From: a virus
Taxonomy: Duplodnaviria; Heunggongvirae; Uroviricota; Caudoviricetes
Strand: one strand, 5' to 3'
DNA length: 42,888 nucleotides
Virus record (IMG/VR): IMGVR_UViG_2734482773_000006
Shown here: positions 1-40,422 of the stretch, piece by piece
Numbering within the stretch: the stretch's first letter is position 1
How the letters are laid out: each line of letters begins with the position of its first letter
Position numbers and translations under genes: made by a program
Notes under the pieces: model-generated
The model's database searches: none
The model's input: only the letters and a program-made list of their open reading frames with translations
What the model was told of the DNA's origin: nothing

Positions 1-2838
1 TTAAATACTCCCCGCGTTATACCACGTCCCATTAATGCAATACTGAATTGGCCTTGCCTGAGTTGTATCAATTAATTCAGCACGGTTTCCGTTAACTGAA
101 CCCGTAACGACATAACCTGACCTGTCAGACCAGCCGGGGCCTTTCCATGTCTGAACAGATGACAGACCGCCAAGGCGAATACCTGTAATAAACCTTGAGT
201 TACATTCTGCCTGCGTATATGCACCAACATCCCCCGCAGAGGGTTTGCGTGTTGTGGTGTAAAACTCTGACCAGTTAGCTTCAAAGCCATAACCATCACG
301 CGCTGAACGATAAAAAATACCGCCGTTCCTGTAATTCACGCGGAACTGTACAGCAGGGCAACTCCCCGCATTCATATTGAAGTGGAGGATTAATGTCGAT
401 GCACCACTGATATCTGCATCATAAACACCGCTATTCCAGTTCCAGCCAACAGCTTTATCATTTGCGACCCTGCGTCCTGTTTGCCCTAAAGCAAATGCAG
501 GCTGCTGGTTTTTCGTGTTGTAGTCTCGTCGCCAGCCAGGAGCGTAAGCATCACCATGATTAATATAAGTGAATTGAGCGTTAGTAATTCCGCCACCGCT
601 GGACGTGCTCGGCGTAGTAACGCGTATGGTCATTGCGCCGCGAGTGCCAATAACTTCCACCACAGCACCTGCAAGACAAATATTTCCGCAACCTGTATCT
701 GTAATAACCTTATTATTTGCATAAGCCCATGAGCCTTTGCACATCCAGTAAGGATGGTTAAATGCCCCCTGACTCTCCAGCCACGAAATAAATTGCGCAG
801 TTGTCCAGACCTGACTATCGCCACCAATATTCAGCCATGCGCTATATGCGCGGCAGGCACCAATGTTTTTGGTGAAGGTATCTTTTCCCGGAATATCTGC
901 GCCGTTCTGGTTTTTCTGTAATGCGCCAGAAGCCTGATTTACCGTTTCCTGTAAACCGAGGTATTCGATAACGGCAGCAACGGTCGATTTCGCAAGAATA
1001 TCCCGCCCGACTTTTGTCAGGGTTGCCAGGCTGGCGACATCATTCCCCGTAAAATACGGAAACCTGTCTGCCGCAGTAGCAAGCCCGGCCAGCGCCGTCA
1101 GGGTGGCATCTTTCGGTTGCTTACCCGCAAGCGCGTTAGTCATGGTGGTCGCAAAATTCGGGTCGTTGCCCAGCGCCGCCGCTAACTCGTTCAGCGTATT
1201 CAGTGCGTCAGGCGACGAGTCTACAAGGGCGGCAATCGCGGCCATCACATAAGCCGTACTTGCGATCTGAGTATTATTAGTACCTTTTGGCGCAGTTGGC
1301 GTTGTTGGCGTTCCGGTCAGTGCAGGACTATTTAAGGGCGCTTTCTTGTTCGTTTCATCCATTACCGCCTTAACCGCTTTTGGTGTCGCAGCCAGCGTTT
1401 CAGACGGGCTGTTAGTGGCGCTACTGAGCTGAACCACACCTTTTTTCGTCGTACTCGCATCTTCCAGAGATACGGCATCAGCAATATCCTCTGCCCGTTT
1501 TGCCGCTGTTTCGGCACGCGTTGCCGCGGATTCAGCAGCAACTTTGCTCTGAGATGCCGCCGTCGCACTGCCAGCAGCCTCTGTTGCCTTCGTGGATGCC
1601 GTCGTGGCGCTGCCCTTCGCTGCTGACGCTTGTCTGGTCGCCTCATCTTTTGAAGCAGACGCCGATGAGGCCGATGACGACGCCGAACTGGCTGACGATG
1701 CGGCAGCCGTTTTTGAGGATTCTGCGCTGGTTTCCGACGCTTTCGCGTTCGTTTCGGATGTCTTCGCTGCGGAAGCTGACCTCGCTGCTGCGCTGGCCTG
1801 CTCAGTGGCTTCGCCAGCCTTCGTTGTGGCTGTTGAAGCGGATGATGCGGCGCTTTCTGCCGATTTTCCGGCGGCGGTGGCACTGGCTGAGGCCTGCCCG
1901 GCACTTGTTGACGCGGCGCTGGCAGACGACGCAGCCGCTGTTTTTGAGCCTGCCGCAGCCGAGGCGCTCTGTCCCGCTGCCGTTTCAGAAGACCTGGCGT
2001 TTGTCTCAGACGTCTTTGCCGCCTTCGCGGAATTGCCTGCCGCCGTTGCCGAGGAAGCGGCACTACTGGCGCTTGATGATGCGTTCGTTTCTGATGATTT
2101 CGCTGCCTCTTTTGAGGCCGCCGCATCCCGGGCTGAGGTGGCTGCTTCTGACGCCTTCGTGGTCGCGGCGGATGCAGAAGTGGCTGCTGATTGTTGTGAC
2201 GCTGCCGCATTCGTTTCTGACGTTTTCGCCGCACCGGCACTGGTAGTTGCCGCGCTTTTTGAGGACTCTGCAGCAGCAGCACTTTTTGCTGCTTCACGGG
2301 CCTTTGTCGATGCCGTTCCTGCGCTGGAAGACGCTGACTGAGCCGACGACGCGGCCTGTCCGGCTGACGTGCTGGCTGCGCGTGCTGAGCCTGCAGCATC
2401 AGTCGCATGGGTTGCCGCCTCACGGGCTGATGTGCTGGCATCGCTGGCTGACTTCTTCGCGGCTGCCGTGTTCTGTGCCACCGCGGACGCGTTACGCGCC
2501 ACCTCTTCCACCATCAGCTCAAAACGGCGCAGTGCCTCCGGACGGGCATCATCCTCCGTCATGGCACCGAGAAAATCATTCAGCGTACCGGGCCGGGAAT
2601 CTTCATACACGGTGATGGTCCCGGCATGTGACGGCGGGAATCCCTCCACCAACAGAATAACGCTGTACTGCCCGTACTCAACGTCCATGCTGTAACGCCC
2701 GGCTTCATCCGGATTTTCTGAGGCCAGCGTGTTCACCACCACCGTGGTGCTGTTACGTTTTGCTTTCAGCTGGATTGTGCAGTTCTGTACCGGTTTTCCT
2801 GTGCCGTCTTTCAGTACACCTGAAATCTTTACTGCCAT
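1..2838 (-). CDS. stf: Side tail fibre protein Stf, with lambda-like N-terminus, long Ala/Ser/Thr-rich repeat region and divergent C-terminal domain
   Basis: ORF track 1..2844; N-terminus MAVKISGVLKDGTGKPVQNCTIQLKA matches lambda Stf as recalled; probable start at third codon; stop codon at 1..3 so the gene is complete. Confidence 0.85.
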   Translation of the reverse strand: MAVKISGVLKDGTGKPVQNCTIQLKAKRNSTTVVVNTLASENPDEAGRYSMDVEYGQYSVILLVEGFPPSHAGTITVYEDSRPGTLNDFLGAMTEDDARPEALRRFELMVEEVARNASAVAQNTAAAKKSASDASTSAREAATHATDAAGSARAASTSAGQAASSAQSASSSAGTASTKAREAAKSAAAAESSKSAATTSAGAAKTSETNAAASQQSAATSASAATTKASEAATSARDAAASKEAAKSSETNASSSASSAASSATAAGNSAKAAKTSETNARSSETAAGQSASAAAGSKTAAASSASAASTSAGQASASATAAGKSAESAASSASTATTKAGEATEQASAAARSASAAKTSETNAKASETSAESSKTAAASSASSASSSASSASASKDEATRQASAAKGSATTASTKATEAAGSATAASQSKVAAESAATRAETAAKRAEDIADAVSLEDASTTKKGVVQLSSATNSPSETLAATPKAVKAVMDETNKKAPLNSPALTGTPTTPTAPKGTNNTQIASTAYVMAAIAALVDSSPDALNTLNELAAALGNDPNFATTMTNALAGKQPKDATLTALAGLATAADRFPYFTGNDVASLATLTKVGRDILAKSTVAAVIEYLGLQETVNQASGALQKNQNGADIPGKDTFTKNIGACRAYSAWLNIGGDSQVWTTAQFISWLESQGAFNHPYWMCKGSWAYANNKVITDTGCGNICLAGAVVEVIGTRGAMTIRVTTPSTSSGGGITNAQFTYINHGDAYAPGWRRDYNTKNQQPAFALGQTGRRVANDKAVGWNWNSGVYDADISGASTLILHFNMNAGSCPAVQFRVNYRNGGIFYRSARDGYGFEANWSEFYTTTRKPSAGDVGAYTQAECNSRFITGIRLGGLSSVQTWKGPGWSDRSGYVVTGSVNGNRAELIDTTQARPIQYCINGTWYNAGSI

Positions 2839-3502: not shown

Positions 3503-3572
3503 AATTACCTCTCGCTTTTCTGCAATAAAAAAGGCGTCATTCCTGACGCCCTTTATTGGGGTTATAAATATT

Positions 3573-14042: not shown

Positions 14043-14617
14043 CGCTTTATTACCATTCTCAGTTGATGCTGCAGCGCATAGCCCAGCTCTTTCGGAAGAC
14101 GTTCACGCCGTATCCGTTCAATATTCTGTTTAAACGCCGTGGTAAGCGGCACCACCATCGGGATTTTCACCACATCAATGGGGTAACGGTTTTTCCCGGC
14201 CACACGCTGCATGACATGCCACCGGCCATTTTTCAGTTGCTGAATAAACGCGCCGGGAATACGACGGTTTCCCACCACAAGCACGCTGCCGCCACCTTTC
14301 AGGGATGAACGCTGCCCCTTTTTACGACGTCTGCGGCGGGAAAGGACAACCCGCGCGTTACCCAGCTTTATTACGGGCAAATCCCCCCGGTTAACCCTGA
14401 TTCTGGCCTGCGGATTTTTGACCGTGGCCCTTTTCAGCCTGGCCCTTTCCTTTACCAGTTTCCGGCGTACCTTTGTCTCACGGGCAACCTGTGACGCAGA
14501 CTGCGATATCGTGGATGACGCAACGCGGTTAATGGCCATTGCGGCGGCACCAGGCACCGCCGTTTTGCTGATACGGCTGAGGTTTTCAACGGCCTGCTCA
14601 AGACCTTTTATGGCCAT
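14039..14617 (-). CDS. Z: Tail completion protein Z
   Basis: 192 aa, lambda Z length and position. Confidence 0.9.
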   Translation of the reverse strand: MAIKGLEQAVENLSRISKTAVPGAAAMAINRVASSTISQSASQVARETKVRRKLVKERARLKRATVKNPQARIRVNRGDLPVIKLGNARVVLSRRRRRKKGQRSSLKGGGSVLVVGNRRIPGAFIQQLKNGRWHVMQRVAGKNRYPIDVVKIPMVVPLTTAFKQNIERIRRERLPKELGYALQHQLRMVIKR

Positions 14618-28813: not shown

Positions 28814-30709
28814 TTAATTATTTTTCTTTAACTTGAAATTTCTTCCCATTGCTAGTGTTCTTCGAAGATTCGAATCATAAGCTGGTTGATAATATCTATC
28901 ATAAAAATCCTTAATTGTCTGATGGTAAGTATCCAGCATCAAACCATAAAACCCCCTAACCTTAAGATAATCCACCAAGGGAAATAAATAATCATCAGTC
29001 TGAACATCAGTATCAATATTATTTTTTTGTTTTTTAACTTCAAATTTGTATAAGTTTAACTCACCCTTATCCATCGTGCATGAAAAAAGGTCGTCAAAAA
29101 TCAAATCAATTTCTGTCATAGGAACTCGTTCTTTTCCAGACATTATAGGTAGAATATCAATACCTAAGAGCGAACCTAATACAAAGTCGTAATGAAGCGA
29201 AATCACTGAGTCATTCGATGTCGAGTTGCCTTTGATAAATACTCTACTTAGTGCCGAGTCAAAAACATTCTCAACTCTCTCTCTCGTCATGTTTGCGACA
29301 TCTACAACTCCCATATCACGAGAAGCTTTTATTGTGATTTCATCTATAAATGCTTTGGAATCTAGTGAATGTAAAAACAACATGAAGTTATCTAACTGTT
29401 CAGAGCATTTAATAGCCACCATAAGATTTTCGTATATATCTTTTTTATACTCAATCGGTAAATTTGCTACCGCAAAAGCAGCATAAAATTCTTGCACTGA
29501 TTTATGCAGAAAAACATACCTATTATTTCCCTCAGGTTGGATAAGGCAAGTTATCTCAATAAGATCATCTATAAAGTTTGATGCATCTTCTTTAAGATAA
29601 CCTTCTGTTTCAATAGCATCTTCAGCATATCTAAGCAACTCCTCTCCCCAAAACTCAAATTTCTCCTCAATCAGTGCGTTATAGCAAATAGCTGAAAAAC
29701 ACAATTTAGCTTTTTCACCAATAATGTTTGATTTTTTCTCGCGCGTATATACTTTTATTTTATCATGCCTTGCATATAAGGTGTCAAAGAGGCTTCGATA
29801 AAACTCTATTATATTATTTGGAATATCATTCATATAAGGATAACAATAATACAAAAGAGTAACTAAAATTGGATTGCAAATAGTTCCCTCAAGTTCTTCT
29901 TTATCACATAGTAAATCCGCCAAGACTTTAAACGAGGCATCACTACTTGAGAATCTGTCATTTTTCGATAAAGAATGAAGAATACAAATCTTATCAGAAA
30001 TATTTAGCTTATCTATAAAAATATTATACACATCAGTAGTATAACATATATCTGTATTTGGTCTCGTTGTTGCGATAATTGGTGTGTTAAAATGATAATG
30101 AATGTTTTTTATTTCATTCATCATCATAGTTCGCTCTTCATGTTTAACCTCATCAAATCCATCCAACATTAAAACGACTCTTTGGGATTGCAGTAATATT
30201 TTCAAGCTATCCTCTGAACACCCCACACCAAATGAATTAAGAATGTCTGCCAGATAAGCAATAATATTTGCATTCTTCACCCTTCTTAATTCAATAAAAA
30301 AAGGCATCCGTTCTGATTTTTTTATTTCCTCGCTAAACAACTTGCGTAAAATAGTACTTTTCCCTTGCCCCGCTATACCGACTATATTTACAATACCATG
30401 AAATGGTAAAGTGACCCCATCTTTTATAACGACCTTGTCTTTATTAGATGCCACCTCAACAGTTAACGGATAATAAATATCATCTAAAAAAATATCATAA
30501 TCAGCGTTGTGCAAAGTTCTCATTTTCAGAGATGGTAGCACATGCTTTCTTAAATAATTTTCTCTTCCGAGGGGATCATTTAATTGTTCGAGTATAACCT
30601 TGCCTTCATCTAGGTCCCTAGCCCAAGGTTTAGAGAGCAATACTTCTGTTATTTTTTCCGCAGCTTTTCCTACTGTGCTATTAATAATAGTCGCAAGAAA
30701 CTCATCCAT
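28814..30709 (-). CDS. NACHT/STAND-family P-loop NTPase (bacterial NLR-like), candidate single-gene anti-phage defence protein
   Basis: ORF track 28814..30766 (650 aa); likely start at internal Met (30709) preceded by GGTGA; Walker A GIAGQGKST (ORF aa 130-138), Walker B VVLMLDGFDE (197-206), TTRP (233-236); visibly AT-rich gene with AT-rich non-coding flanks. Confidence 0.7.
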   Translation of the reverse strand: MDEFLATIINSTVGKAAEKITEVLLSKPWARDLDEGKVILEQLNDPLGRENYLRKHVLPSLKMRTLHNADYDIFLDDIYYPLTVEVASNKDKVVIKDGVTLPFHGIVNIVGIAGQGKSTILRKLFSEEIKKSERMPFFIELRRVKNANIIAYLADILNSFGVGCSEDSLKILLQSQRVVLMLDGFDEVKHEERTMMMNEIKNIHYHFNTPIIATTRPNTDICYTTDVYNIFIDKLNISDKICILHSLSKNDRFSSSDASFKVLADLLCDKEELEGTICNPILVTLLYYCYPYMNDIPNNIIEFYRSLFDTLYARHDKIKVYTREKKSNIIGEKAKLCFSAICYNALIEEKFEFWGEELLRYAEDAIETEGYLKEDASNFIDDLIEITCLIQPEGNNRYVFLHKSVQEFYAAFAVANLPIEYKKDIYENLMVAIKCSEQLDNFMLFLHSLDSKAFIDEITIKASRDMGVVDVANMTRERVENVFDSALSRVFIKGNSTSNDSVISLHYDFVLGSLLGIDILPIMSGKERVPMTEIDLIFDDLFSCTMDKGELNLYKFEVKKQKNNIDTDVQTDDYLFPLVDYLKVRGFYGLMLDTYHQTIKDFYDRYYQPAYDSNLRRTLAMGRNFKLKKNN

Positions 30710-31097
30710 TTTTTCACCACATTCATTAACCAATACGTGGTGCATTCTTACAAGACTCAGTAACAATTGTCAATCATAGGTTTTCGCATGATTGCAAAAC
30801 GCCATAAACAATTGTAGCACCATAATTTTAAACACTATATAATATACAACCTTCCTACAAGCATTCAGTACATCGCTTAATCACAGGGCTTGAATATATA
30901 GTAAGGAATCGATATTAATCACCTCATCTACTTTAAACATCTTACACACCTATAATTTATAATAGTCAACACGAGGTCATCATATTAAACATGCAATTAC
31001 AAACATTCATTTTTATATAAATTTTCATGATTTAACCGTAGGGCGACGGTAATAAATTTCATATACAAGGATTTAAGCTCCCATACGTTTTCTATTA

Positions 31098-31277
31098 TTA
31101 AAAATAACATACCGTTCGCCAGACCTTACCATCAATGACTAAGATTCCTGCCCGCGCCATTTTAGCCGCAGCCTGATTTATGCTGGTTACGGTTGCGCCT
31201 GTTACCGCGGCAACGTCCTGTGCACAGAAGCTCTTATGCGTCCCCAGGTAATGAATAATTGCCTCTTTGCCCGTCAT
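31098..31277 (-). pseudogene. ren: Truncated ren gene (59 codons), broken at the junction with the AT-rich island
   Basis: Read by eye: MTGKEAIIHYLGTHKSFCAQDVAAVTGATVTSINQAAAKMARAGILVIDGKVWRTVCYF then stop; matches the lambda Ren N-terminus as recalled and ends ~37 codons early; ATG overlaps P stop. Confidence 0.6.
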
Positions 31278-31975
31278 ACACTTGCTCCTTTCAGTCCGAA
31301 CTTAGCTTTAATTTCTGCGATCTTCGCCAGAGCCTGTGCACGATTTAGAGGTCTACCGCCCATAACAGGAAGTTGTTTTACTGGTTCAGGTATCGTCTCA
31401 CCACGGTTAATTCGCGCTGTCATACAGGCCAGTTCATCGGCAGCCTTGCGCCGTAATTCCGCGTCAGTCAACGCATTGGCCCGCATGTTCTGGTACAGGT
31501 TGGTAACCAACCAGTAGTGCGCGTTTGATTTCCATGGATAAGACTCTGCGTCCGGATACAGGCCACGCTTCCGGCAATACTCGTAAACCATATCAACCAG
31601 CTCGCTGGCGTTTGGCAGCCCGGCGGTAACGGATGTTTCTTCCCGGCACCAGGCAACAAACTGCCCGGGAGATGGCAGGAATGGTCGATTCTGCCGACGG
31701 GCTACGCGCATTCCTGCGTTAACCTGTTCCATTGTGGTGATCCCATTTTCCCGGAAAGCCAGCACCCACTGGCGGCGGATTTCGTTCAGTTCGTTCTGGT
31801 CCCGGTTAGCCAAGCTCGCCGGGAAAGTTGCCAGTAACTGGCTGAACACACCGTTGATGATCTGCGCTACCTGCTGTACCTGCGGCTTTTCGTCGTACTG
31901 TTCCGGCATGTTGTTGGCGATCCGACGCATCTGCTCACGGTCAAAGTTAACCATCTGTGCGGCGATGTTTTTCAT
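31274..31975 (-). CDS. P: Replication protein P (DnaB helicase loader)
   Basis: 233 aa, MKNIAAQMVNFDREQMRRIANNMPEQYDEKPQVQQ, lambda P. Confidence 0.95.
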   Translation of the reverse strand: MKNIAAQMVNFDREQMRRIANNMPEQYDEKPQVQQVAQIINGVFSQLLATFPASLANRDQNELNEIRRQWVLAFRENGITTMEQVNAGMRVARRQNRPFLPSPGQFVAWCREETSVTAGLPNASELVDMVYEYCRKRGLYPDAESYPWKSNAHYWLVTNLYQNMRANALTDAELRRKAADELACMTARINRGETIPEPVKQLPVMGGRPLNRAQALAKIAEIKAKFGLKGASV

Positions 31976-32901
31976 AAATCCACCCCGTAAATCCAGTCAG
32001 TGTTTGTCAGGTCGAGTTTTGGTTTTCTGGCTGCCACGCCAGCCTGTTGCTTGTTACGGTTGATTTCGAGCTGGGTCCACTTGTCGCGGAGTTTAGCCGG
32101 ACTCAGCACGTTACCGGACCAGAAGTTGTCCTGGCATGCCCAGCGGAACAGCACGCACATGTCGCGGTGGTTACGTCCATCACGTTCACGCATCAGGCGG
32201 ATATCGTTAGCCCACCCTGCAAAATTCGGTTTTCTGGCTGATGGCGCGATGGTCTTCACCATGTCAAACATCCACTCTGCGGCGGTCAGGTCTTCTGCTG
32301 TCCCCCACCTGCTGCCGCTCTGAATTGCAGCATCCGGTTTCACCACAGGAAGATCGTTTTCTGGTTGGTCAGAGGATTCGCCAGAATTCTCGGACGAAAA
32401 AGGTTTTATATTGTCTTTTGTTAGTTTGTCTTTTGTGTTTACCTGATTCGGGTAAACGCCTTTACCTGATTTGGGTAAACTTTTTTTACCTGATTCAGGT
32501 AAATTTACCTCTTTCAGGTAAACTTTATTTTTCTTACCTGATTCGGGTAATGTTGACCATTCACTGACCACATTATTAATGCCGGTATTCCGCCCGCTCT
32601 GAATAAAAATCCCACGCTTTACCAGAACACTTTTTGCAGCAGAACACTTGTGCGGCAATATCCCGGTTAATTCGGAAAGTTGCTCGTTGCTAACCCAATC
32701 CAGTTTTTTATTAAAGCCATATGTTTTGCGCATGACAGCCAGAAAGACCAGAAGCTGGTGCTGTGTTAATCCGGCCAGCATCACAGCTTCCAGCAACTCA
32801 TTTGCAATGCGCGTATAACCATCGTCGAGATCTGCCACGCGCCGCTCCTTTTGTGCCACATCCGGCACTGGAAAATTGAATATCTCAGCAGTGTTTGCCA
32901 T
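31972..32901 (-). CDS. O: Replication initiator protein O
   Basis: ORF track 31972..32991; probable start at internal MANTAEIFNFP with GGAGG upstream; contains the ori iterons; C-terminus lambda O-like (pairs with P). Confidence 0.85.
   Translation of the reverse strand: MANTAEIFNFPVPDVAQKERRVADLDDGYTRIANELLEAVMLAGLTQHQLLVFLAVMRKTYGFNKKLDWVSNEQLSELTGILPHKCSAAKSVLVKRGIFIQSGRNTGINNVVSEWSTLPESGKKNKVYLKEVNLPESGKKSLPKSGKGVYPNQVNTKDKLTKDNIKPFSSENSGESSDQPENDLPVVKPDAAIQSGSRWGTAEDLTAAEWMFDMVKTIAPSARKPNFAGWANDIRLMRERDGRNHRDMCVLFRWACQDNFWSGNVLSPAKLRDKWTQLEINRNKQQAGVAARKPKLDLTNTDWIYGVDL
32395..32552. repeat. Replication origin: five ~17-bp iterons (TACCTGATTCGGGTAAA-like) plus adjacent AT-rich segment, inside the O gene
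   Basis: Five near-identical copies spaced ~24 bp apart, each an inverted repeat TTACC..GGTAA; seen as repeated LPESGKK in the O protein. Confidence 0.75.
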
Positions 32902-32987
32902 AATTCCTCCCGCAATGAGTGTGTTACGATTTGCACCTGAAAGTCGGTTCTGTTCGCGCAGACCGGCTTTCGCCATTTCCGAACCTG

Positions 32988-33533
32988 TCATATTGCCCCC
33001 AGCATGGTGGTGACCATCGCCATCAGTGGACCAGCCAAATCCGGGTCCACACGAAACATCGACACAATGCCTTCACTCATCTCCTTCAGTTTCTGGTGGC
33101 GTGGTGCGTTGAGAATGACAGCCTGTTTTGCCTCACTGAGTTCCTTTTCCATTTCAGCCAGCCGAGCCATGTAGCTATCCTGCTCAACCAGGTGGCCGCG
33201 ATATTCCAGCGGTAGTACCGCCAGAATTGCCGGGGTCAGTTCACGCACGTTATTTCGGTATTTTTCAGAATCGAATTTGTTATCGAGGAAGCGGAACAGC
33301 TTCTGGCGTGCACGGCTGACATCATCAGGGAAATCGATGGTGCCGCCGCCCTGCTCCCGATACTCATTCACAATGAGTGCGGCAACAACATCCTGATTAT
33401 CTGCAGCCGACCAGGCGCGAACGGCATCACGGATTTTTTCGTGGCCTGGCGCCTGTTTTGTTTGAGAACGATTTATCACCGCAGTCGGGCTAAATCCGCT
33501 AGTCTGTTGGTATGTAAGTGGTTGCATAGTCAT
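32988..33533 (-). CDS. YdaT-like protein (CII functional analogue of Rac-type immunity regions)
   Basis: 181-aa ORF just downstream of the cro-like gene; motifs NEYREQGGG and LTPAILAVLPLEYR resemble Rac YdaT as recalled. Confidence 0.55.
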   Translation of the reverse strand: MTMQPLTYQQTSGFSPTAVINRSQTKQAPGHEKIRDAVRAWSAADNQDVVAALIVNEYREQGGGTIDFPDDVSRARQKLFRFLDNKFDSEKYRNNVRELTPAILAVLPLEYRGHLVEQDSYMARLAEMEKELSEAKQAVILNAPRHQKLKEMSEGIVSMFRVDPDLAGPLMAMVTTMLGAI

Positions 33534-33557
33534 TGCCTTATCAGTTAACGCCGCAGT

Positions 33558-33785
33558 TTAGGCGGCAGAATTACTCGCGTTAAACAATGGTGCGAGGTCG
33601 GGACGAATATCTGCTGGTTTAATCTTTCCACCAGTGGCTGAGACAATTTTCATTACATAGCGGGCATCAATTCCGCCACCGTGTAGCCAACGCCAAACTG
33701 TGGGTTGGGCTACACCGCATAGATCTGCCAGTCGTTTTTGACTACCTGTAATACTGATTGCGAGTTGAATGGTTTGATTTGTCAT
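33558..33785 (-). CDS. cro: Cro/YdaS-like HTH repressor
   Basis: ORF track 33558..33791 (TTG); probable ATG at third codon; HTH GVAQPTVWRW; divergent from cI. Confidence 0.75.
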   Translation of the reverse strand: MTNQTIQLAISITGSQKRLADLCGVAQPTVWRWLHGGGIDARYVMKIVSATGGKIKPADIRPDLAPLFNASNSAA

Positions 33786-33895
33786 TATCAATTCCTATTG
33801 GTATTGCAATGAATGAATAATAGCAATGCGTATTAATCCAAGCAATAGCAAAACGTGTTTTGACCATCAATACGCAAGCGTATAAATTAAAACTT
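33786..33895. promoter_or_regulatory. Right operator/promoter region (OR, PR, PRM-like) between divergent cro and cI
   Basis: 110-bp divergent intergenic region with repeated (T/A)TAGCAAT / TTGCAAT motifs, also found in the presumed OL region. Confidence 0.5.
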
Positions 33896-34588
33896 ATGAA
33901 AAAAGAAACTCTTGCTGATCGCTTAAACCTAGCGATGGAACAATCTGGAATGTCTCAAGGCGCTCTTGCAAAGGCGTCTGGCGTAGCTCAACCCACAATC
34001 TGGAGACTGACAAGCGGCAACGCTCGCGGCTCAACAAAAATTGTTGAAATAGCTAATGCATTGGGTGTTCGAACAGAATGGCTCTCATCAGGCATAGGCC
34101 CGATGAGAAATGACGGTCAACAATCAGGGAAGCCTGCTGTCAGCCATTCAAAATACTTCAAGATTGACGTTCTTGATATAGAAGTGAGTGCCGGGCCGGG
34201 AGTCATCAACCGTGAGTTTGTAGAAGTTCTACGCTCGGTTGAGTACTCGTTTGACGATGCTCGTCACATGTTCGATGGTAGGAAGGCAGAAAATATCCGC
34301 ATCATTAACGTACGCGGTGACAGCATGTCAGGAACGATCGAACCAGGTGATCTGCTGTTCGTTGATATCACGGTTAAATCTTTCGACGGTGATGGTATCT
34401 ATGCGTTTCTGTATGACGACACCGCCCATGTAAAGCGCCTGCAAATGATGAAGGATAAGCTACTGGTTATCTCTGATAACAAGAGCTACTCACCGTGGGA
34501 CCCGATCGAGAAAGACGAGATGAACCGGGTATTCATATTCGGTAAGGTTATTGGGAGCATGCCGCAGACGTACAGAAAACACGGATAA
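33896..34588 (+). CDS. cI: CI-type prophage repressor (N-terminal HTH, C-terminal S24 LexA-like peptidase domain)
   Basis: ORF track 33860..34588 (TTG); probable ATG at MKKETLADRLN (may be leaderless as lambda cI); HTH GMSQGALAKASGVAQPTIWRL; S24-like GDSM and K residues. Confidence 0.85.
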   Translation: MKKETLADRLNLAMEQSGMSQGALAKASGVAQPTIWRLTSGNARGSTKIVEIANALGVRTEWLSSGIGPMRNDGQQSGKPAVSHSKYFKIDVLDIEVSAGPGVINREFVEVLRSVEYSFDDARHMFDGRKAENIRIINVRGDSMSGTIEPGDLLFVDITVKSFDGDGIYAFLYDDTAHVKRLQMMKDKLLVISDNKSYSPWDPIEKDEMNRVFIFGKVIGSMPQTYRKHG

Positions 34589-34670
34589 TCAGCCGCGTGT
34601 TGATGAGGCTTTTGGGTAATACGCTGAAGAAAATACCTTATAAAAAATAACATTACGGGAAAGGCAAAAA

Positions 34671-34934
34671 ATGAGTAATAAAACACTTGTTAAAAAATCA
34701 AATAACTGTGTCGATGCATACGCCGACGCGTTTGGCTACTCTTCGTTTGGTGACGGCTCTCAGCGCCTAGGTTCAATTTCTTTTTTTCATAATGTAACTG
34801 AATGGCCTGTTGATGAAAGTGACGATGTTGAGAACATAAAGTACAACATTGCAACCATTAGAATGCCCGAAGAATTGATGCTTAAATTGGCTGACTTCAT
34901 TCGCGACCAGCATGACAAAGCTAAAACAAACTAA
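34671..34934 (+). CDS. Hypothetical 87-aa acidic protein, first gene downstream of cI (rexA position)
   Basis: ORF track; same strand as cI, before the terminator at ~35466; no family recognised. Confidence 0.45.
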   Translation: MSNKTLVKKSNNCVDAYADAFGYSSFGDGSQRLGSISFFHNVTEWPVDESDDVENIKYNIATIRMPEELMLKLADFIRDQHDKAKTN

Positions 34935-34946
34935 TCGTAATTAATT

Positions 34947-35390
34947 ATGAAACACGATTATTACGAAGCTCCAAACCTAAATGATAAAATTGCAAAGGCG
35001 GCAAAATCATTTTGTTTGCACTCCAGTGCGTCTTCCCAGCTAGCAGGTATATCTGGAAAAAGATGGGACATGCTACAATCAAGTGGTAGCAGTGGGTCTG
35101 GGAGTGATAACATGCCTGAAAAAGTTGCAAAACTGGAGTCCGATGTTGCTCATATCAAACGAGACGTTGATGAACTTAAAACAGACGTTAAAGCTATCGA
35201 CAAAAATATGATAACTATTCTTGCACGTCTGGACTCTATAAAAGAATCCTTAACAAACAAGCCATCAAGTGATGCTGTCGATAGAAAGATTTCAGACGCA
35301 AAGCTTGCGGTATTGCTTGGTGTTCCAGCAATCATCGCTGCAGGAACAGGACTTTATAAGCTATCAATGTACTTTTTCTTTAGTGCTTAA
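34947..35390 (+). CDS. Hypothetical coiled-coil protein with C-terminal transmembrane anchor (rexB position); probable shorter 92-aa form from 35112
   Basis: ORF track 147 aa; internal ATG at 35112 has GGAG upstream; C-terminal hydrophobic helix AVLLGVPAIIAAGTGLYKLSMYFFF; heptad-like charged region. Confidence 0.45.
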   Translation: MKHDYYEAPNLNDKIAKAAKSFCLHSSASSQLAGISGKRWDMLQSSGSSGSGSDNMPEKVAKLESDVAHIKRDVDELKTDVKAIDKNMITILARLDSIKESLTNKPSSDAVDRKISDAKLAVLLGVPAIIAAGTGLYKLSMYFFFSA

Positions 35391-35465
35391 GAAAATGCTC
35401 GCACCCTTGCATTAGGTAAAGCGATTTTTCATTCCCCATTACCCTCGCTCTTAACCAATCATCTA

Positions 35466-35494
35466 AACCCGGCCACCGTGCCGGGTTTTCTTTT
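35466..35494 (+). terminator. Rho-independent terminator ending the cI-operon transcript
   Basis: Hairpin CCCGGCCACCGTGCCGGG followed by TTTTCTTTT, read by eye. Confidence 0.55.
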
Positions 35495-35589
35495 GCCCTC
35501 CCCTCATCACACACCGTTCAAAAAACCACCACGACCTCACTTCAGTTATCGCTATGCGATGCAAGTCACAAAATTAATTCTTTTTGCTA

Positions 35590-35700
35590 TCAAACATTTA
35601 ATATCAAAACACATCAACTAATAGCAATAAGTATTGATATCACCAATAGCAATAGCTATTATCACCATATCGCAACAACACAACGATACGGCAACCACCT
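35590..35700 (+). promoter_or_regulatory. Putative left operator/promoter (OL/PL)
   Basis: Cluster of ATAGCAAT / TATCACC repeats shared with the cro-cI intergenic region, upstream of the gam-bet-exo operon. Confidence 0.4.
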
Positions 35701-35855
35701 GATTCACCGTTGCGATGACCGCTTAGATCCGCAGCTTGAATTTCAGCAGGCTTCGGGGAGTGCGAGGGATGAAACGGACGCGTGAACGTCGGTGTGACCA
35801 GCTGAAATCAACTCAACATTTCATACCTTAGTCGCTTCAACGAGGCGGCTTAGTT

Positions 35856-36146
35856 ATGACAACCGGCGGCCATCCACCGCCTGAATACGCGCAGAAGTCT
35901 TTATATGTTCAGCAGCCCAGCTTACGGGCAGGAGTTTTTATGGTTCATCAACATTACGGAACGCAGACCGTTAATCGCGGTGCGGTCATGCCAGGAATGC
36001 TGGTCAAACGCAAAGATGGTACCTGGACTGCATCAGCTAATTTACGCGGACGACTTTATCTGCATCGCGGCATTGAGCGCACTTATACCCGTGACTTGCT
36101 CGTGGAAGTTTTTCTCGACGGACGCGGCAACGGTCTGAATCACTAA
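35856..36146 (+). CDS. Hypothetical 96-aa protein, first sizeable ORF of the pL operon
   Basis: ORF track; SD-like GAGGCGG upstream; in frame with gam and separated from it by one TAA codon. Confidence 0.4.
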   Translation: MTTGGHPPPEYAQKSLYVQQPSLRAGVFMVHQHYGTQTVNRGAVMPGMLVKRKDGTWTASANLRGRLYLHRGIERTYTRDLLVEVFLDGRGNGLNH

Positions 36147-36221
36147 TCCCCTTTCCTGTTTTCCGAATCAGCCTGGCATTCCGCGGGCGATTTTTTCACA
36201 GCCATTTTCAGGAGTTCAGCC

Positions 36222-36518
36222 ATGAACGCTTATTACATTCAGGATCGTCTTGAGGCTCAGAGCTGGGCGCGTCACTACCAGCAGATCGCCCGTGAAGAGA
36301 AAGAGGCAGAACTGGCAGACGACATGGAAAAAGGCCTGCCCCAGCACCTGTTTGAATCGCTATGCATCGATCATTTGCAACGCCACGGGGCCAGCAAAAA
36401 AGCCATTACCCGTGCGTTTGATGACGATGTTGAGTTTCAGGAACGCATGGCAGAACACATACGGTACATGGTTGAAACTATTGCCCGCCACCAGGTTGAT
36501 ATTGATTCAGAGGTATAA
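36222..36518 (+). CDS. gam: Gam (RecBCD inhibitor), short GamS form
   Basis: 98 aa, [34 protein letters not shown], lambda GamS. Confidence 0.9.
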
Positions 36519-36523
36519 AACGG

Positions 36524-37309
36524 ATGAGTACAGCACTCGCAACGCTGGCAGGGAAGCTGGCTGAACGTGTCGGCATGGATTCTGTCGACCCACAGGAACT
36601 GATCACCACTCTTCGCCAGACGGCATTTAAAGGTGATGCCAGCGATGCGCAGTTCATCGCATTGTTGATCGTCGCCAACCAGTACGGCCTTAATCCGTGG
36701 ACGAAAGAAATTTACGCCTTCCCTGATAAGCAGAACGGCATCGTTCCGGTGGTGGGCGTTGATGGCTGGTCCCGCATCATCAATGAAAACCAGCAGTTTG
36801 ATGGCATGGACTTTGAGCAGGACAATGAATCCTGTACATGCCGGATTTACCGCAAGGACCGTAATCATCCGATCTGCGTTACCGAATGGATGGATGAATG
36901 CCGCCGCGAACCATTCAAAACTCGCGAAGGCAGAGAAATTACGGGGCCGTGGCAGTCGCATCCCAAACGGATGTTACGGCATAAAGCCATGATTCAGTGT
37001 GCCCGTCTGGCCTTCGGATTTGCTGGTATCTATGACAAGGATGAAGCCGAGCGCATTGTCGAAAATACTGCATACACTGCAGAACGTCAGCCGGAACGCG
37101 ACATCACTCCGGTTAACGATGAAACCATGCAGGAGATTAACACTCTGCTGATCGCCCTGGATAAAACATGGGATGACGACTTATTGCCGCTCTGTTCCCA
37201 GATATTTCGCCGCGACATTCGCGCATCGTCAGAACTGACACAGGCCGAAGCAGTGAAAGCTCTTGGATTCCTGAAACAGAAAGCCACTGAGCAGAAGGTG
37301 GCAGCATGA
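36524..37309 (+). CDS. bet: Bet (Red beta single-strand annealing protein)
   Basis: 261 aa, [48 protein letters not shown], lambda Bet. Confidence 0.95.
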
Positions 37310-37986
37310 CACCGGACATTATCCTGCAGCGTACCGGGATCGACGTGAGAGCTGTCGAACAGGGGGATGATGCATGGCACAAATTACGGCTCGGCGTCAT
37401 CACCGCTTCAGAAGTTCACAACGTGATAGCAAAGCCCCGCTCAGGAAAGAAGTGGCCTGACATGAAAATGTCCTACTTCCACACCCTGCTGGCTGAGGTT
37501 TGCACCGGTGTGGCTCCGGAAGTTAATGCTAAGGCGCTGGCCTGGGGAAAACAGTACGAGAACGACGCCAGAGCCCTGTTTGAGTTTACTTCCGGCGTGA
37601 ATGTTACTGAATCCCCGATCATCTATCGCGACGAAAGTATGCGCACCGCCTGCTCTCCCGATGGTTTATGCAGTGACGGCAACGGCCTTGAACTGAAATG
37701 CCCGTTTACCTCCCGGGATTTCATGAAATTCCGGCTCGGTGGTTTCGAGGCCATAAAGTCAGCTTACATGGCCCAGGTGCAGTACAGCATGTGGGTGACG
37801 CGAAAAGATGCCTGGTACTTTGCCAACTATGACCCACGAATGAAGCGTGAAGGCCTGCATTATGTCGTGGTTGAGCGGGATGAAAATTACATGGCGAGTT
37901 TTGACGAGATGGTGCCGGAGTTCATCGAAAAAATGGACGAGGCACTGGCTGAAATTGGTTTTGTATTTGGGGAGCAATGGCGATGA
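37306..37986 (+). CDS. exo: Exo (Red alpha 5'-3' exonuclease)
   Basis: 226 aa, [40 protein letters not shown], lambda Exo. Confidence 0.95.
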
Positions 37987-38165
37987 AACATCCTCACGAT
38001 AATATCCGCGTAGGCACGATCACTTTCGTCTACTCCGTTACGAAGCGAGGCTGGGTATTTCCCGGCCTTTCTGTTATCCGAAATCCCCTGAAAGCACAGC
38101 GGCTGGCTGAGGAGATAAATAATAAACGGGGAGCTGTATGCACAAAGCATCTCCCGTTCAGTTAA
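37977..38165 (+). CDS. Lambda orf60a-like small protein
   Basis: 62 aa, [30 protein letters not shown]; position after exo as in lambda. Confidence 0.7.
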
Positions 38166-38329
38166 GAACGAGTATCGAGATGGCACATAGCCTCGCTCAA
38201 ATTGGAGTCAGGTTTGTGCCAATACCAGTAGAAACAGACGAAGAATTTCATACGTTAGCCGCATCCCTTTCACAAAAGCTGGAAATGATGGTGGCGAAAG
38301 CAGAAGCAGATGAGAGAGACCAGGTATGA
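38138..38329 (+). CDS. Lambda orf63-like small protein
   Basis: 63-aa ORF in the lambda order. Confidence 0.65.
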   Translation: MHKASPVQLRTSIEMAHSLAQIGVRFVPIPVETDEEFHTLAASLSQKLEMMVAKAEADERDQV

Positions 38330-38405
38330 CAACCACGGAATGCATTTTTCTGGCAGCGGGCTTCATATTCTGTGTGCTTATGCTTGCCGACATGGGACTT
38401 GTTCA

Positions 38406-38621
38406 ATGACACCTCAGCAGGAAAACGCCCTTCGCAGCATTGCCCGTCAGGCTAATTCTGAAATCAAAAAAGCCAGACAGCAGTTTCCGGATAAAAACGT
38501 CGATGACATTTGCCGTAGCGTACTGAAGAAGCACCGCGAAACGGTAACGCTGATGGGATTCACACCGACTCATTTAAGCCTGGCAATCGGCATGTTAAAC
38601 GGCGTCTTTAAGGAACGATGA
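38406..38621 (+). CDS. Lambda orf61-like small protein
   Basis: ORF track 38310..38621; probable start at internal MTPQQENALRSIARQ. Confidence 0.6.
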   Translation: MTPQQENALRSIARQANSEIKKARQQFPDKNVDDICRSVLKKHRETVTLMGFTPTHLSLAIGMLNGVFKER

Positions 38622-38719
38622 ACATGAAAAGCAAAATCATCAGGGAGCTACAGGCTCCTTTTTTATTATTCGCATTCACCCTCAAGCGTATTAACCAACA
38701 ATTCAGGGATTAATGGAAG

Positions 38720-38941
38720 ATGGCAGACATCATTGATTCAGCATCAGAAATTGAAGAATTACAGCGCAACACAGCAATAAAAATGCGCCGCCTGAACCAC
38801 CAGGCTATATCTGCCACTCATTGTTGTGAGTGTGGCGATCCGATAGATGAACGAAGACGCCTGGTCGTTCAGGGTTGTCGGACTTGTGCAAGTTGCCAGG
38901 AGGATCTGGAGCTTATCAGTAAACAGAGAGGTTCGAAGTGA
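38720..38941 (+). CDS. DksA/TraR-family C4 zinc finger protein (lambda orf73-like)
   Basis: 73 aa with CxxC...CxxC (CCECGDPI...CRTCASC). Confidence 0.8.
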   Translation: MADIIDSASEIEELQRNTAIKMRRLNHQAISATHCCECGDPIDERRRLVVQGCRTCASCQEDLELISKQRGSK

Positions 38942-39151
38942 GCGAAATTAACTAGAAGCCAAAGATAAAATCATCGCTGAGCAGGAGAAAATCGCTAACG
39001 GAGAAAAGACAGTAAGTCAGTATATGAAAACCGCATGATATCATCAGATAAAAATCGGTCGTAAAGCGAAATATTAATACCAGAACAAACGAGTCGAGGT
39101 AAATTATATTACCTCGATAAATTAACTAAAACTTGCCCGCTATATACTATA

Positions 39152-39754
39152 TCATTCAGTATCATCACGCGCGGTCTGTGCATATGTCACTACCGCACCT
39201 AATATATTAATTTTCTTTTCAACATAGATAATATTATCGTACTCATAATTGCCATACGGATAGCAAATGCGAATATTCTCATGTAGATCGGGGTCATCCA
39301 CCTCAGCTCCAGAACAACTTTTTGAACTACCGGAAGTATACCGATACGGTGCAACATAAGACGATGTCTCTCCAGGCAAAAAATAAGTTAGTGTCGTAAG
39401 GGGTATAATCAGAAAAAATCCTGCAAATATGCACATCCCTGCATAAACCTTAAGGTATGCTGACAGACTCTTCCAGCCTCTTTGTTTTACTATCCCCTTC
39501 TTAACCCAAAACAGAGATAACAGAAAAGCTATTCCCATGCTAAACAGAATGTAATAGTGGGATATACTCTGATTAAGAAACGTGACCCTGTAGATATCTG
39601 CCCGCCACCAGAAGAAAAGGAAAATAAAGATCAGCCCTGAAACTGTCATGCAAATCAAATAAGGATACGAATCTTTTTTCATGTTTAGCGCCCATAAAAT
39701 TTTTCCTGACCCGGACAAATTTACCATCCATTTTTTGCGCAGAAAATAGCTCAT
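39152..39754 (-). CDS. Hypothetical integral membrane protein (three predicted TM helices plus Cys-containing C-terminal domain), AT-rich moron
   Basis: 200-aa ORF on the opposite strand to neighbours; hydrophobic segments LICMTVSGLIFIFLFFWW, YYILFSMGIAFLLSLFWV, VYAGMCIFAGFFLIIPLTTLTYFL; start codon uncertain. Confidence 0.5.
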   Translation of the reverse strand: MSYFLRKKWMVNLSGSGKILWALNMKKDSYPYLICMTVSGLIFIFLFFWWRADIYRVTFLNQSISHYYILFSMGIAFLLSLFWVKKGIVKQRGWKSLSAYLKVYAGMCIFAGFFLIIPLTTLTYFLPGETSSYVAPYRYTSGSSKSCSGAEVDDPDLHENIRICYPYGNYEYDNIIYVEKKINILGAVVTYAQTARDDTE

Positions 39755-39996
39755 TACTTACTGCACAATAATACACAAAATTGCGTAAATTTTTTGCATG
39801 GATTTTAGCTCTTTCAGCCGACATTTAAGGGGTAAATAGCATTTCCTAAAAGCAACTGCACCAACCCAACAGAATGGGCTACCGCTTACGTTGAGAGCAA
39901 AAAAGTGTATAGCAGCAATGAACAGCATCCTCGCACTGACGAGGATTTCTTTTATCTGAACTCGCTACGGCGGGTTTTGTTTTATGGAGATGATAA

Positions 39997-40164
39997 ATGC
40001 ACTTCCGAGTCACAGGTGAATGGAATGGAGAACCATTCAACAGAGTTATCGAAGCCGAGAACATCAGCGACTGCTATGACCACTGGATGCTGTGGGCGCA
40101 GATAGCACATGCAGACGTAACCAATATTCGAATTGAAGAACTGAAAGAACACCAAGCCGCCTGA
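39997..40164 (+). CDS. Small hypothetical protein upstream of xis (lambda orf55-like position)
   Basis: Read by eye, ~55 codons, ATG preceded by GGAGA; below the ORF track threshold. Confidence 0.4.
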   Translation: MHFRVTGEWNGEPFNRVIEAENISDCYDHWMLWAQIAHADVTNIRIEELKEHQAA

Positions 40165-40178
40165 TGGCGGTTTTTTCT
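40156..40178 (+). terminator. Rho-independent terminator-like hairpin between the small ORF and xis
   Basis: GCCGCCTGATGGCGG followed by TTTTTT, read by eye. Confidence 0.45.
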
Positions 40179-40203: not shown

Positions 40204-40422
40204 ATGTACTTGACACTTCAGGAGTGGAACGCACGCCAGCGACGCCCAAGAAGCCTTGAAACAGTTCGTCGATGGGTACGCGAGTGCAGGATATTCCCTC
40301 CTCCGGTTAAGGATGGAAGAGAGTATCTGTTCCACGAATCAGCGGTAAAGGTTGACTTAAATCGACCAGTAACAGGTAGCCTTTTGAAGAGGATCAGAAA
40401 TGGGAAGAAGGCGAAGTCATGA
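40204..40422 (+). CDS. xis: Excisionase Xis
   Basis: 72 aa, MYLTLQEWNARQRRPRSLETVRRWVRECRIFPPPVKDGREYLFHESAV, lambda Xis. Confidence 0.95.
   Translation: MYLTLQEWNARQRRPRSLETVRRWVRECRIFPPPVKDGREYLFHESAVKVDLNRPVTGSLLKRIRNGKKAKS

Follow-up and report, generated by a model that had tools for sequence, protein, structure and literature searches.

A conserved untranslated pL leader with a two-hairpin RNA module, and with neither N nor put, in a widespread lineage of lambda-like Escherichia coli prophages

Early antitermination by the N protein is a textbook feature of lambdoid phages, and to our knowledge the put RNA is the one well-studied exception to it. The window analyzed here, a stretch of viral DNA of 42,888 nucleotides (IMG/VR record IMGVR_UViG_2734482773_000006), is a lambda-like prophage in which no N gene follows the early-left promoter, and its early-left region, between the cI-moron operon and gam, raises the question of how such an operon is expressed. 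A sequence-only reading of this region had noticed the gap and offered two answers, namely that N and neighboring genes were lost by deletion or that the phage uses a different mechanism, such as an HK022-like cis-acting RNA. Our results favor another answer, to which we assign a probability of about 0.55: that a widespread lambdoid lineage (the PhiR68_2, 4A7/Bievrevirus, and Perceval type) has this as its native early-left control region, with kil, gam, bet, and exo read directly from pL.

The repressor gene of the window is followed by a two-gene moron and an intrinsic terminator (Table 1). The stretch from 35466 to 35493 is 89% identical to lambda 35826-35799, the hairpin just after rexB, which we take to be t_imm, and in relatives that carry other morons the shared homology begins at 35465-35468. 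The moron pair (34671-35390), lying between the repressor gene and pL, fills the rexA/rexB position; its 147-aa protein matches PHROG 3556, which carries no function label, and the same slot holds a SIR2-family protein in one relative (L005) and an ASCH-domain protein in phage 4A7. Downstream of exo lie lambda-type small open reading frames (ORFs) and then xis and int. On the other strand, cro and the YdaT-type gene in the cII position are about 24 nt apart, with neither a terminator nor a tR1-like site between them. Gene O holds four palindromic units of about 19 nt (TTTACCTGATTCGGGTAAA) at 32434-32550, presumably the ori iterons, and an AT-rich insert between P/ren and ninB encodes a 650-aa NACHT/AAA-domain protein (28814-30766, minus strand) and resembles a defence moron inside the pR operon.

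Table 1. Features of the early region of the window, and copies of the two-hairpin module at other loci
Feature	Position	Strand	Basis or detail
Q antiterminator	27113-26715	-	family scans
O, P, NACHT-domain moron, NinB, YbcO, RusA		-	family scans
YdaT-type protein in cII position		-	family scans
YdaS-type Cro	33791-33558	-	ORF list, family scans
S24/HTH repressor	33860-34588	+	ORF list, family scans
Two-gene moron, 87 aa and 147 aa	34671-34934, 34947-35390	+	ORF list, family scans
Intrinsic terminator ending the cI-plus-moron operon	35465..35488	+	9-bp stem, then T-run
oL operators overlapping pL	35619..35668	+	50-nt block rich in AATAGCAAT
pL -35 TTGATA; -10 TATTAT	35634-35639; 35657-35662	+	
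Probable start and 5' leader segment, partly immunity-specific	35669..35702	+	homology break
Leader core, non-coding, lineage-specific, 119 nt	35703..35821	+	genome survey
21-codon ATG ORF (ORF21) MKRTRERRCDQLKSTQHFIP	35769-35831 including stop	+	ORF list
Two-hairpin module, about 60 nt	35822-35881	+	covariation, covariance model R2
Hairpin A	35822..35858	+	CAUA/UAUG closing helix flanking 9-bp covarying stem
Hairpin B	35865..35881	+	GGCGG-CCAUCCA-CCGCC, nearly invariant
96-aa ORF	35856-36146	+	ORF list
3' leader	35882..35939	+	small hairpin GCCC 35915-35918 / GGGC 35926-35929
Shine-Dalgarno AGGAG	35930-35934	+	5 nt upstream of kil ATG 35940
KilR-type Kil, 68 aa, 207 nt	35940..36146	+	PHROG 294, RefSeq annotation
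Mosaic joint into lambda-like DNA and kil-gam spacer	36140..36221	+	lambda alignment
gam (98-aa form)	36222-36518	+	ORF list, phage annotations, lambda homology
bet	36524-37309	+	ORF list, phage annotations, lambda homology
exo	37306-37986	+	ORF list, phage annotations, lambda homology
Module copy, HK225 (L087)	3504-3563		
Module copy, phi80 (L238)	2509-2567		
Module copy, HK639 (L237)	2528-2586		
Module copies, further loci (L219-L236)			

The operator cluster that had been presumed upstream of the leader proved real. Its oL block (35619-35668) is a direct repeat of the cro/cI intergenic (oR) block at 33818-33867, with 74% identity, and it overlaps the best sigma-70-like site of the region (TTGATA-17-TATTAT, 35634-35662, 10/12 consensus match). 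Homology between immunity types breaks exactly at 35669 or 35703, and three immunity types join the common leader at one or the other of these positions, each with its own -35 and -10 elements at equal spacing, so that pL transcription would start at about 35669. From there to the ATG of kil at 35940 the leader spans 271 nt with no N gene in between, and its first segment, 35669..35702, is C/A-rich and G-poor (GC skew -0.38 to -0.54).

That N is missing downstream of oL/pL, as the sequence-only reading had it, was confirmed. Annotations of near-identical phages place no N gene between cI and gam, none of the early-region ORFs scanned against Pfam and PHROGs matches an N family, and the ORFs within 35669-36221 are a 20-aa chance ORF and KilR. 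Nor does a boxA (CGCTCTTWA) occur in 35669-35939 or after cro, the only matches in the window being at 35446 and 24316 (minus strand); for boxB the nut test is weaker, as boxB types differ between phages. The copy at 35446-35454 is an exact lambda nutL-type boxA (CGCTCTTAA) 10 nt upstream of the t_imm-like hairpin, that is, upstream of pL at the 3' end of the cI-moron operon, and as two matches were observed in the window where 0.56 are expected, this one may be due to chance. The absence of N is real, and it matches the ordinary layout of a lambdoid lineage rather than a defect.

The first ORF of the leader had been likened to the arginine-rich motif of N proteins. A 21-codon Arg-rich ORF is indeed present, although it ends at 35831, 3 nt before the 35834 given earlier, and the likeness itself is not conserved: the ATG is replaced by GTG in 45 of 59 distinct relatives, four relatives carry a 5-nt insertion inside the frame, and diversity by codon position (0.055 / 0.021 / 0.060) has no periodicity. 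With 117 ORFs of at least 20 aa overlapping 33000-39500, an ORF of 20 to 30 codons means nothing by its presence alone. As a remnant of N it was rejected too, the N of phi80 having no similarity to it, and the 68-aa in-frame translation, compared with 5.8 billion proteins, returned near-identical E. coli gene calls and deletion fusions only. ORF21 is a chance reading frame and not a gene or the remains of one for N.

ORF21, the 96-aa ORF, and kil lie in one common reading frame. A T/C polymorphism at 35829, unpaired in hairpin A, turns the TAG stop of ORF21 into CAG in about 40% of relatives, which merges ORF21 with kil and explains the inconsistent "Kil" annotations that run across the leader in some records. 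A long Arg-rich-Kil fusion protein was considered and rejected: indels break its frame, no Shine-Dalgarno sequence precedes any upstream start, codon periodicity is absent, and synonymous changes amount to 13 of 33 (39%) compared with 12 of 33 (36%) in another frame.

The non-basic 96-aa ORF said to precede gam is likewise present, as is gam, but the real gene within it is a 68-aa Kil to which a 28-codon extension has been added. This protein, which had been raised as a possible analogue of N, is identified as a KilR-type Kil, and not an N analogue, by its match to PHROG 294 "Kil protein" (E = 1.5e-36, residues 1-68 on profile positions 13-80 of 83), and relatives carry PF27398 KilR. Exactly this 207-nt gene is annotated in RefSeq genomes and in phage 4A7, and in 68 relatives its segregating sites fall 0 / 3 / 21 on the three codon positions. 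KilR is a family annotated as a cell-division inhibitor. The 28-codon extension starts at an upstream ATG inside the conserved hairpin A; its diversity by codon position (0.020 / 0.001 / 0.003) is without periodicity, and a search of 5.8 billion proteins found no protein family for it. Since neither ORF21 nor the extension has a coding signature, the leader is non-coding. Its 3' part (35882..35939) is of very low diversity and has related blocks in other phages, and the hairpin of the kil-gam spacer (36171-36188) is weak, with 5 pairs and a T-run tail (GATTTTTTCA).

This layout is shared far beyond the window. The stretch 35466-36230 is 100% identical in phage PhiR68_2, and pL-leader-kil-gam is 90-99.5% identical in 14 further phage records, including 4A7 (Bievrevirus) and Perceval. 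In all, 15-16 sequenced phages are 90-100% identical here, and 15 records match the region over 80% or more of its length. Perceval, a prophage of LF82, is experimentally active and yields virions (PMC9928086). Among 5426 complete E. coli genomes, 2210 (about 41%) carry the 119-nt leader core, all at 90% identity or more and 2209 of them at full length, and no annotated feature lies under it in the genomes surveyed. Nucleotide diversity (pi) is 0.025 in the core and 0.019-0.025 in the leader as against 0.04-0.06 at neighboring third codon positions; the leader is under purifying selection and so has some role.

Homology to lambda is confined to the hairpin at 35466-35493 and to the DNA from 36140 onward, where 36140-38700 aligns with lambda 33193-30633 at 97.5% identity; from the t_imm-like hairpin to the end of kil there is none. 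Because the intervening DNA is not homologous to lambda, it is an alternative module and not the scar of a deletion from lambda. The idea that N and its neighbors were deleted, which would leave the prophage antitermination-defective, can point to the roughly 2 kb (nutL, N, sieB, ral, ea10, and cIII) that are missing relative to lambda between the t_imm-like hairpin and the kil end. However, the identical layout is found in phages that have been sequenced and propagated, in an experimentally active prophage, and in some 41% of complete E. coli genomes, the region does not differ at all from that of PhiR68_2, and the intervening DNA is conserved as well as foreign to lambda, so that we find this idea scarcely credible.

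The leader as a whole has no global structure that folding could detect (z = -0.05 over its full length, with +0.78 when the core is folded alone), and a search among phages for remote homologues of the core, on which covariation could be tested, found none. An 11-bp long-range inverted repeat (35736-35747 / 35801-35811, UUGAAUUUCAGC / GCUGAAAUCAA) encloses the G-rich center of the core. We rejected it as a helix: two natural variants keep the pairing by wobble, with no compensatory change and no thermodynamic signal.

For put to act, RNA polymerase needs its beta-prime zinc-binding domain, and the element has recognizable sequence and structure. We gathered put elements from IMG/VR by a pattern derived from HK022 putL and putR and aligned 22 variants with the nested part of the cryo-EM structure imposed (PMC9378689); 97.6% of cells were paired in this alignment, and none of 500 shuffles did as well. 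The covariance model built from it, R1, scored 87.4 bits on HK022 putL and 80.6 bits on putR, and it also recovered put elements that it had not seen, namely the HK639 putL-like RNA (56.8 bits) and that of locus L213 (71.3 bits). In the leader of the window R1 found no match with its filters off, and the put hallmarks GAACGGC, GUCGG, CGGCG, GGAUGA, and CAAUG are all absent from it. The HK022-like cis-acting RNA that had been offered as an alternative to deletion is thus not there, at least in the form of put. The best match of R1 in the window, 32807-32869 inside gene O (14.3 bits, E = 0.13), was rejected as coding and without the invariant put motifs; in homologues the match scores 14-19 bits.

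Other signals were sought with the same outcome. A repeat search and a scan with R2, the covariance model of the module described below, found no second copy of any leader segment on the pR side. The leader has no ops element (GGCGGTAGNNTG), whose only match, with one mismatch, lies at 14282 (minus strand) and is at chance level. An Rfam scan of 31000-38000 with E values up to 1 gave two chance matches only, mir-7940 and rliD, of which the latter is spurious and falls on the ori iterons in gene O. The lineage has neither N/nut nor an HK022-type put RNA.

What the leader does contain is a module of two hairpins. Across 27 sequence variants, hairpin A has seven pairs with compensatory double changes; 96.8% of cells are paired compared with 31-50% in slid register, none of 500 shuffles is as good, and the minimum free energy fold is the same structure (z = -4.1). 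A G-U pair at alignment columns 15-23 is kept in 25 of the 27 variants, which places the structure on the pL-sense RNA. In hairpin B, none of the 27 variants shows a change in three of the five pairs or anywhere in the 7-nt loop, and each of the outer two pairs is altered in one variant; the 11-nt linker between the hairpins and the CAUA/UAUG closing helix are nearly invariant as well. R2 scores 87.1 bits (E = 5e-21) on the module of the window, the only copy there, a score that is partly by construction since the window sequence is in the seed alignment A2, and 69-88 bits on independent members, with one copy per locus. The module copy in the window has no Rfam match, and a full-text literature search for the exact sequence of hairpin B returned no hit; the two-hairpin element is apparently undescribed.

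Hairpin A contains both the stop codon of ORF21 and the ATG of the 96-aa ORF. In all 27 variants this invariant AUG is paired within the closing helix, and a GAGG lies about 10 nt before it. Read from the AUG, the frame varies between variants in length and phase, and since it is not preserved the module is a nucleic-acid element. The hairpin B region was also seen to lie at breakpoints: in some E. coli assemblies (P0001-P0003; L211) deletions have their junctions within hairpin B or immediately past it, the deletion derivatives fuse the leader to bet, gam, or an orf61-like gene, and this suggests a hotspot of deletion or recombination.

The module recurs with 87-97% identity in early-left operons whose flanking sequences are unrelated, in phages HK225, phi80, and HK639 and in prophages of Enterobacter, Citrobacter, Leclercia, Scandinavium, and Trabulsiella. 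The first gene after it differs between these phages and is not always kil. In phi80 the module lies directly 3' of tL1A, the terminator after N; in HK639 it lies 3' of the terminator that closes putL and two genes; HK225 and most prophages of Enterobacter and Citrobacter likewise have a terminator directly before it; and elsewhere its immediate neighbor is mostly a GC hairpin followed by a T6 run. One locus has it directly 3' of a put element. In the lineage of the window there is no terminator between pL and the module. From these comparisons, what relatives carry between pL and the module is an antiterminator cassette with its own terminator (nutL-N-tL1A in phi80), and both are missing here as a unit.

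Hairpin A by itself, with the same CAUA...UAUG helix and embedded AUG (and the GAGG), occurs just upstream of cIII in lambda (33481-33521; L210 2982-3022, minus strand; 15.7 bits) and in HK022 (L003 4444-4488, minus strand; 17.7 bits). These copies differ from the module in lacking hairpin B, in their U-rich 3' tail, and in their weak scores. Each is preceded by a small terminator-like hairpin, and in HK022 the UGA stop of a short ORF read from the hairpin A AUG overlaps the start codon of cIII.

Our results lead us to propose that, once the repressor is lost, pL would fire at about 35669 and RNA polymerase would cross the untranslated leader, in which there is no hairpin with a good U-tract, and continue straight into kilR, gam, bet, and exo, which would act as immediate-early genes with no need for processive antitermination; the absence of the cassette and its terminator as a unit would be what puts the module into the pL leader. 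From 35669 to the end of exo, every site that resembles a terminator is weak, with 5-6 pairs. Beyond exo the picture is different, and it is here that the proposal is strained. In its distal part the pL operon shares about 97% identity with lambda and with the N-encoding phage mEp332, and strong intrinsic terminators are kept before xis/int (38642-38660, 39927-39946, 39958-39977, and 40154-40173), while in the direction of Q, after the NACHT gene and upstream of ninB, there is a hairpin that ends in a T7 tail (28649-28626). These distal terminators, the T7 hairpin, and the constraint on the leader all count against a model without antitermination. An untranslated leader of 271 nt is also expected to be a target of Rho, and no element that would protect it from Rho was found. 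All four distal terminators precede xis, which starts at 40204; the first of them lies in DNA that aligns directly with lambda (97.5%), and mEp332 matches the whole distal stretch (about 97%).

These terminators could be accommodated if the leader, through its 119-nt core, its module, or both, acted as a new cis-acting RNA that makes RNA polymerase resistant to termination. It occupies the position just 3' of pL where putL sits, it is constrained with a core kept at full length, terminators shared with lambda still precede xis/int, and the module resembles put in being a two-stem RNA of about 60 nt, one that covaries and has invariant loops. However, unlike nut and put, it has no second copy after pR; the module is found also in phages that have N (phi80) or put (HK639, L213, L219, and L217) and usually lies downstream of the very terminator that an antiterminator would need to precede; and the core has no thermodynamic or covariation signal and no remote homologues. 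On balance we regard such an RNA as rather unlikely, and it is more doubtful still that the lineage-specific core, possibly with the module, constitutes a third phage processive antitermination signal beside nut and put. We likewise think it unlikely that the leader is a regulatory 5' untranslated region that limits or times the toxic kil, through Rho-dependent attenuation or through control of translation at hairpin A, a role that could coexist with direct read-through from pL. Rho silences prophage kil genes, the leader is long and untranslated with a C-rich, G-poor 5' 40 nt, and hairpin A combines a Shine-Dalgarno-like GAGG with an AUG that is paired throughout; yet the C-rich segment is missing from one immunity type, the gene behind the module varies and need not be kil, and the upstream reading frame is conserved in neither length nor phase. 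Very improbable, in our view, is a so far unrecognized trans-acting phage protein that stands in for N. Small early proteins without known function are encoded at 37977-38165, 38138-38329, and 38310-38621, and the cII position is occupied by a YdaT-type protein, presumably a CII-like DNA binder as reported for YdaT; the small proteins, however, are of the lambda orf60a/orf63/orf61 type and occur in N-dependent lambda as well, and no candidate site in the RNA is found on both operons. Direct reading of kil, gam, bet, and exo from pL thus remains the explanation that we prefer.

Compared with known systems, the window is lambda-like in kind. It shares with lambda (N/nutL/tL1) and phi80 (N/nutL/tL1A-tL1B) the order cI, terminator, oL/pL, leader, kil, gam, bet, and exo, with lambda its distal operon, and with phi80 the two-hairpin module, which in phi80 comes right after tL1A; in contrast to both it lacks N, its leader contains neither boxA nor boxB, and pL and the module are not separated by a terminator. 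With the put phages HK022 and HK639 it shares the lack of N and a conserved non-coding RNA region directly 3' of pL, and put and the module are both pairs of stem-loops of similar total size, but put systems have copies after pL and pR whereas the leader of the window has neither a put match nor a pR copy.

Growth of lambdoid phages without N is known from the nin5 and byp derivatives of lambda, and lambdoid phages that lack N are on record in HK022, HK639, LLS, and the Eru1 Stx phages. For the N-less LLS phage a put-like mechanism is only a guess of its authors (PMC12315714), and the Eru1 Stx phages reportedly have no N, CII, or CIII (PMC8044961). In comparison with LLS and Eru1, the lineage described here is far more prevalent, the absence of put has been tested in it, and lambda-type distal terminators are kept. 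New here are the RNA module and the result of our tests that a very prevalent lineage possesses neither N nor put.

Our findings concern a lineage present in about 41% of complete E. coli genomes, among them that of the pathobiont LF82, which has neither N nor put and yet keeps the distal terminators of lambda, and they raise the question of how such prophages express their excision and recombination functions on induction. If the leader were a new antitermination RNA, the commonest E. coli lineage of lambda-like prophages would use a cis-acting RNA of its own to pass lambda-type terminators. The function of the module, whatever it proves to be, would bear on the control of delayed-early genes in lambdoid phages generally.
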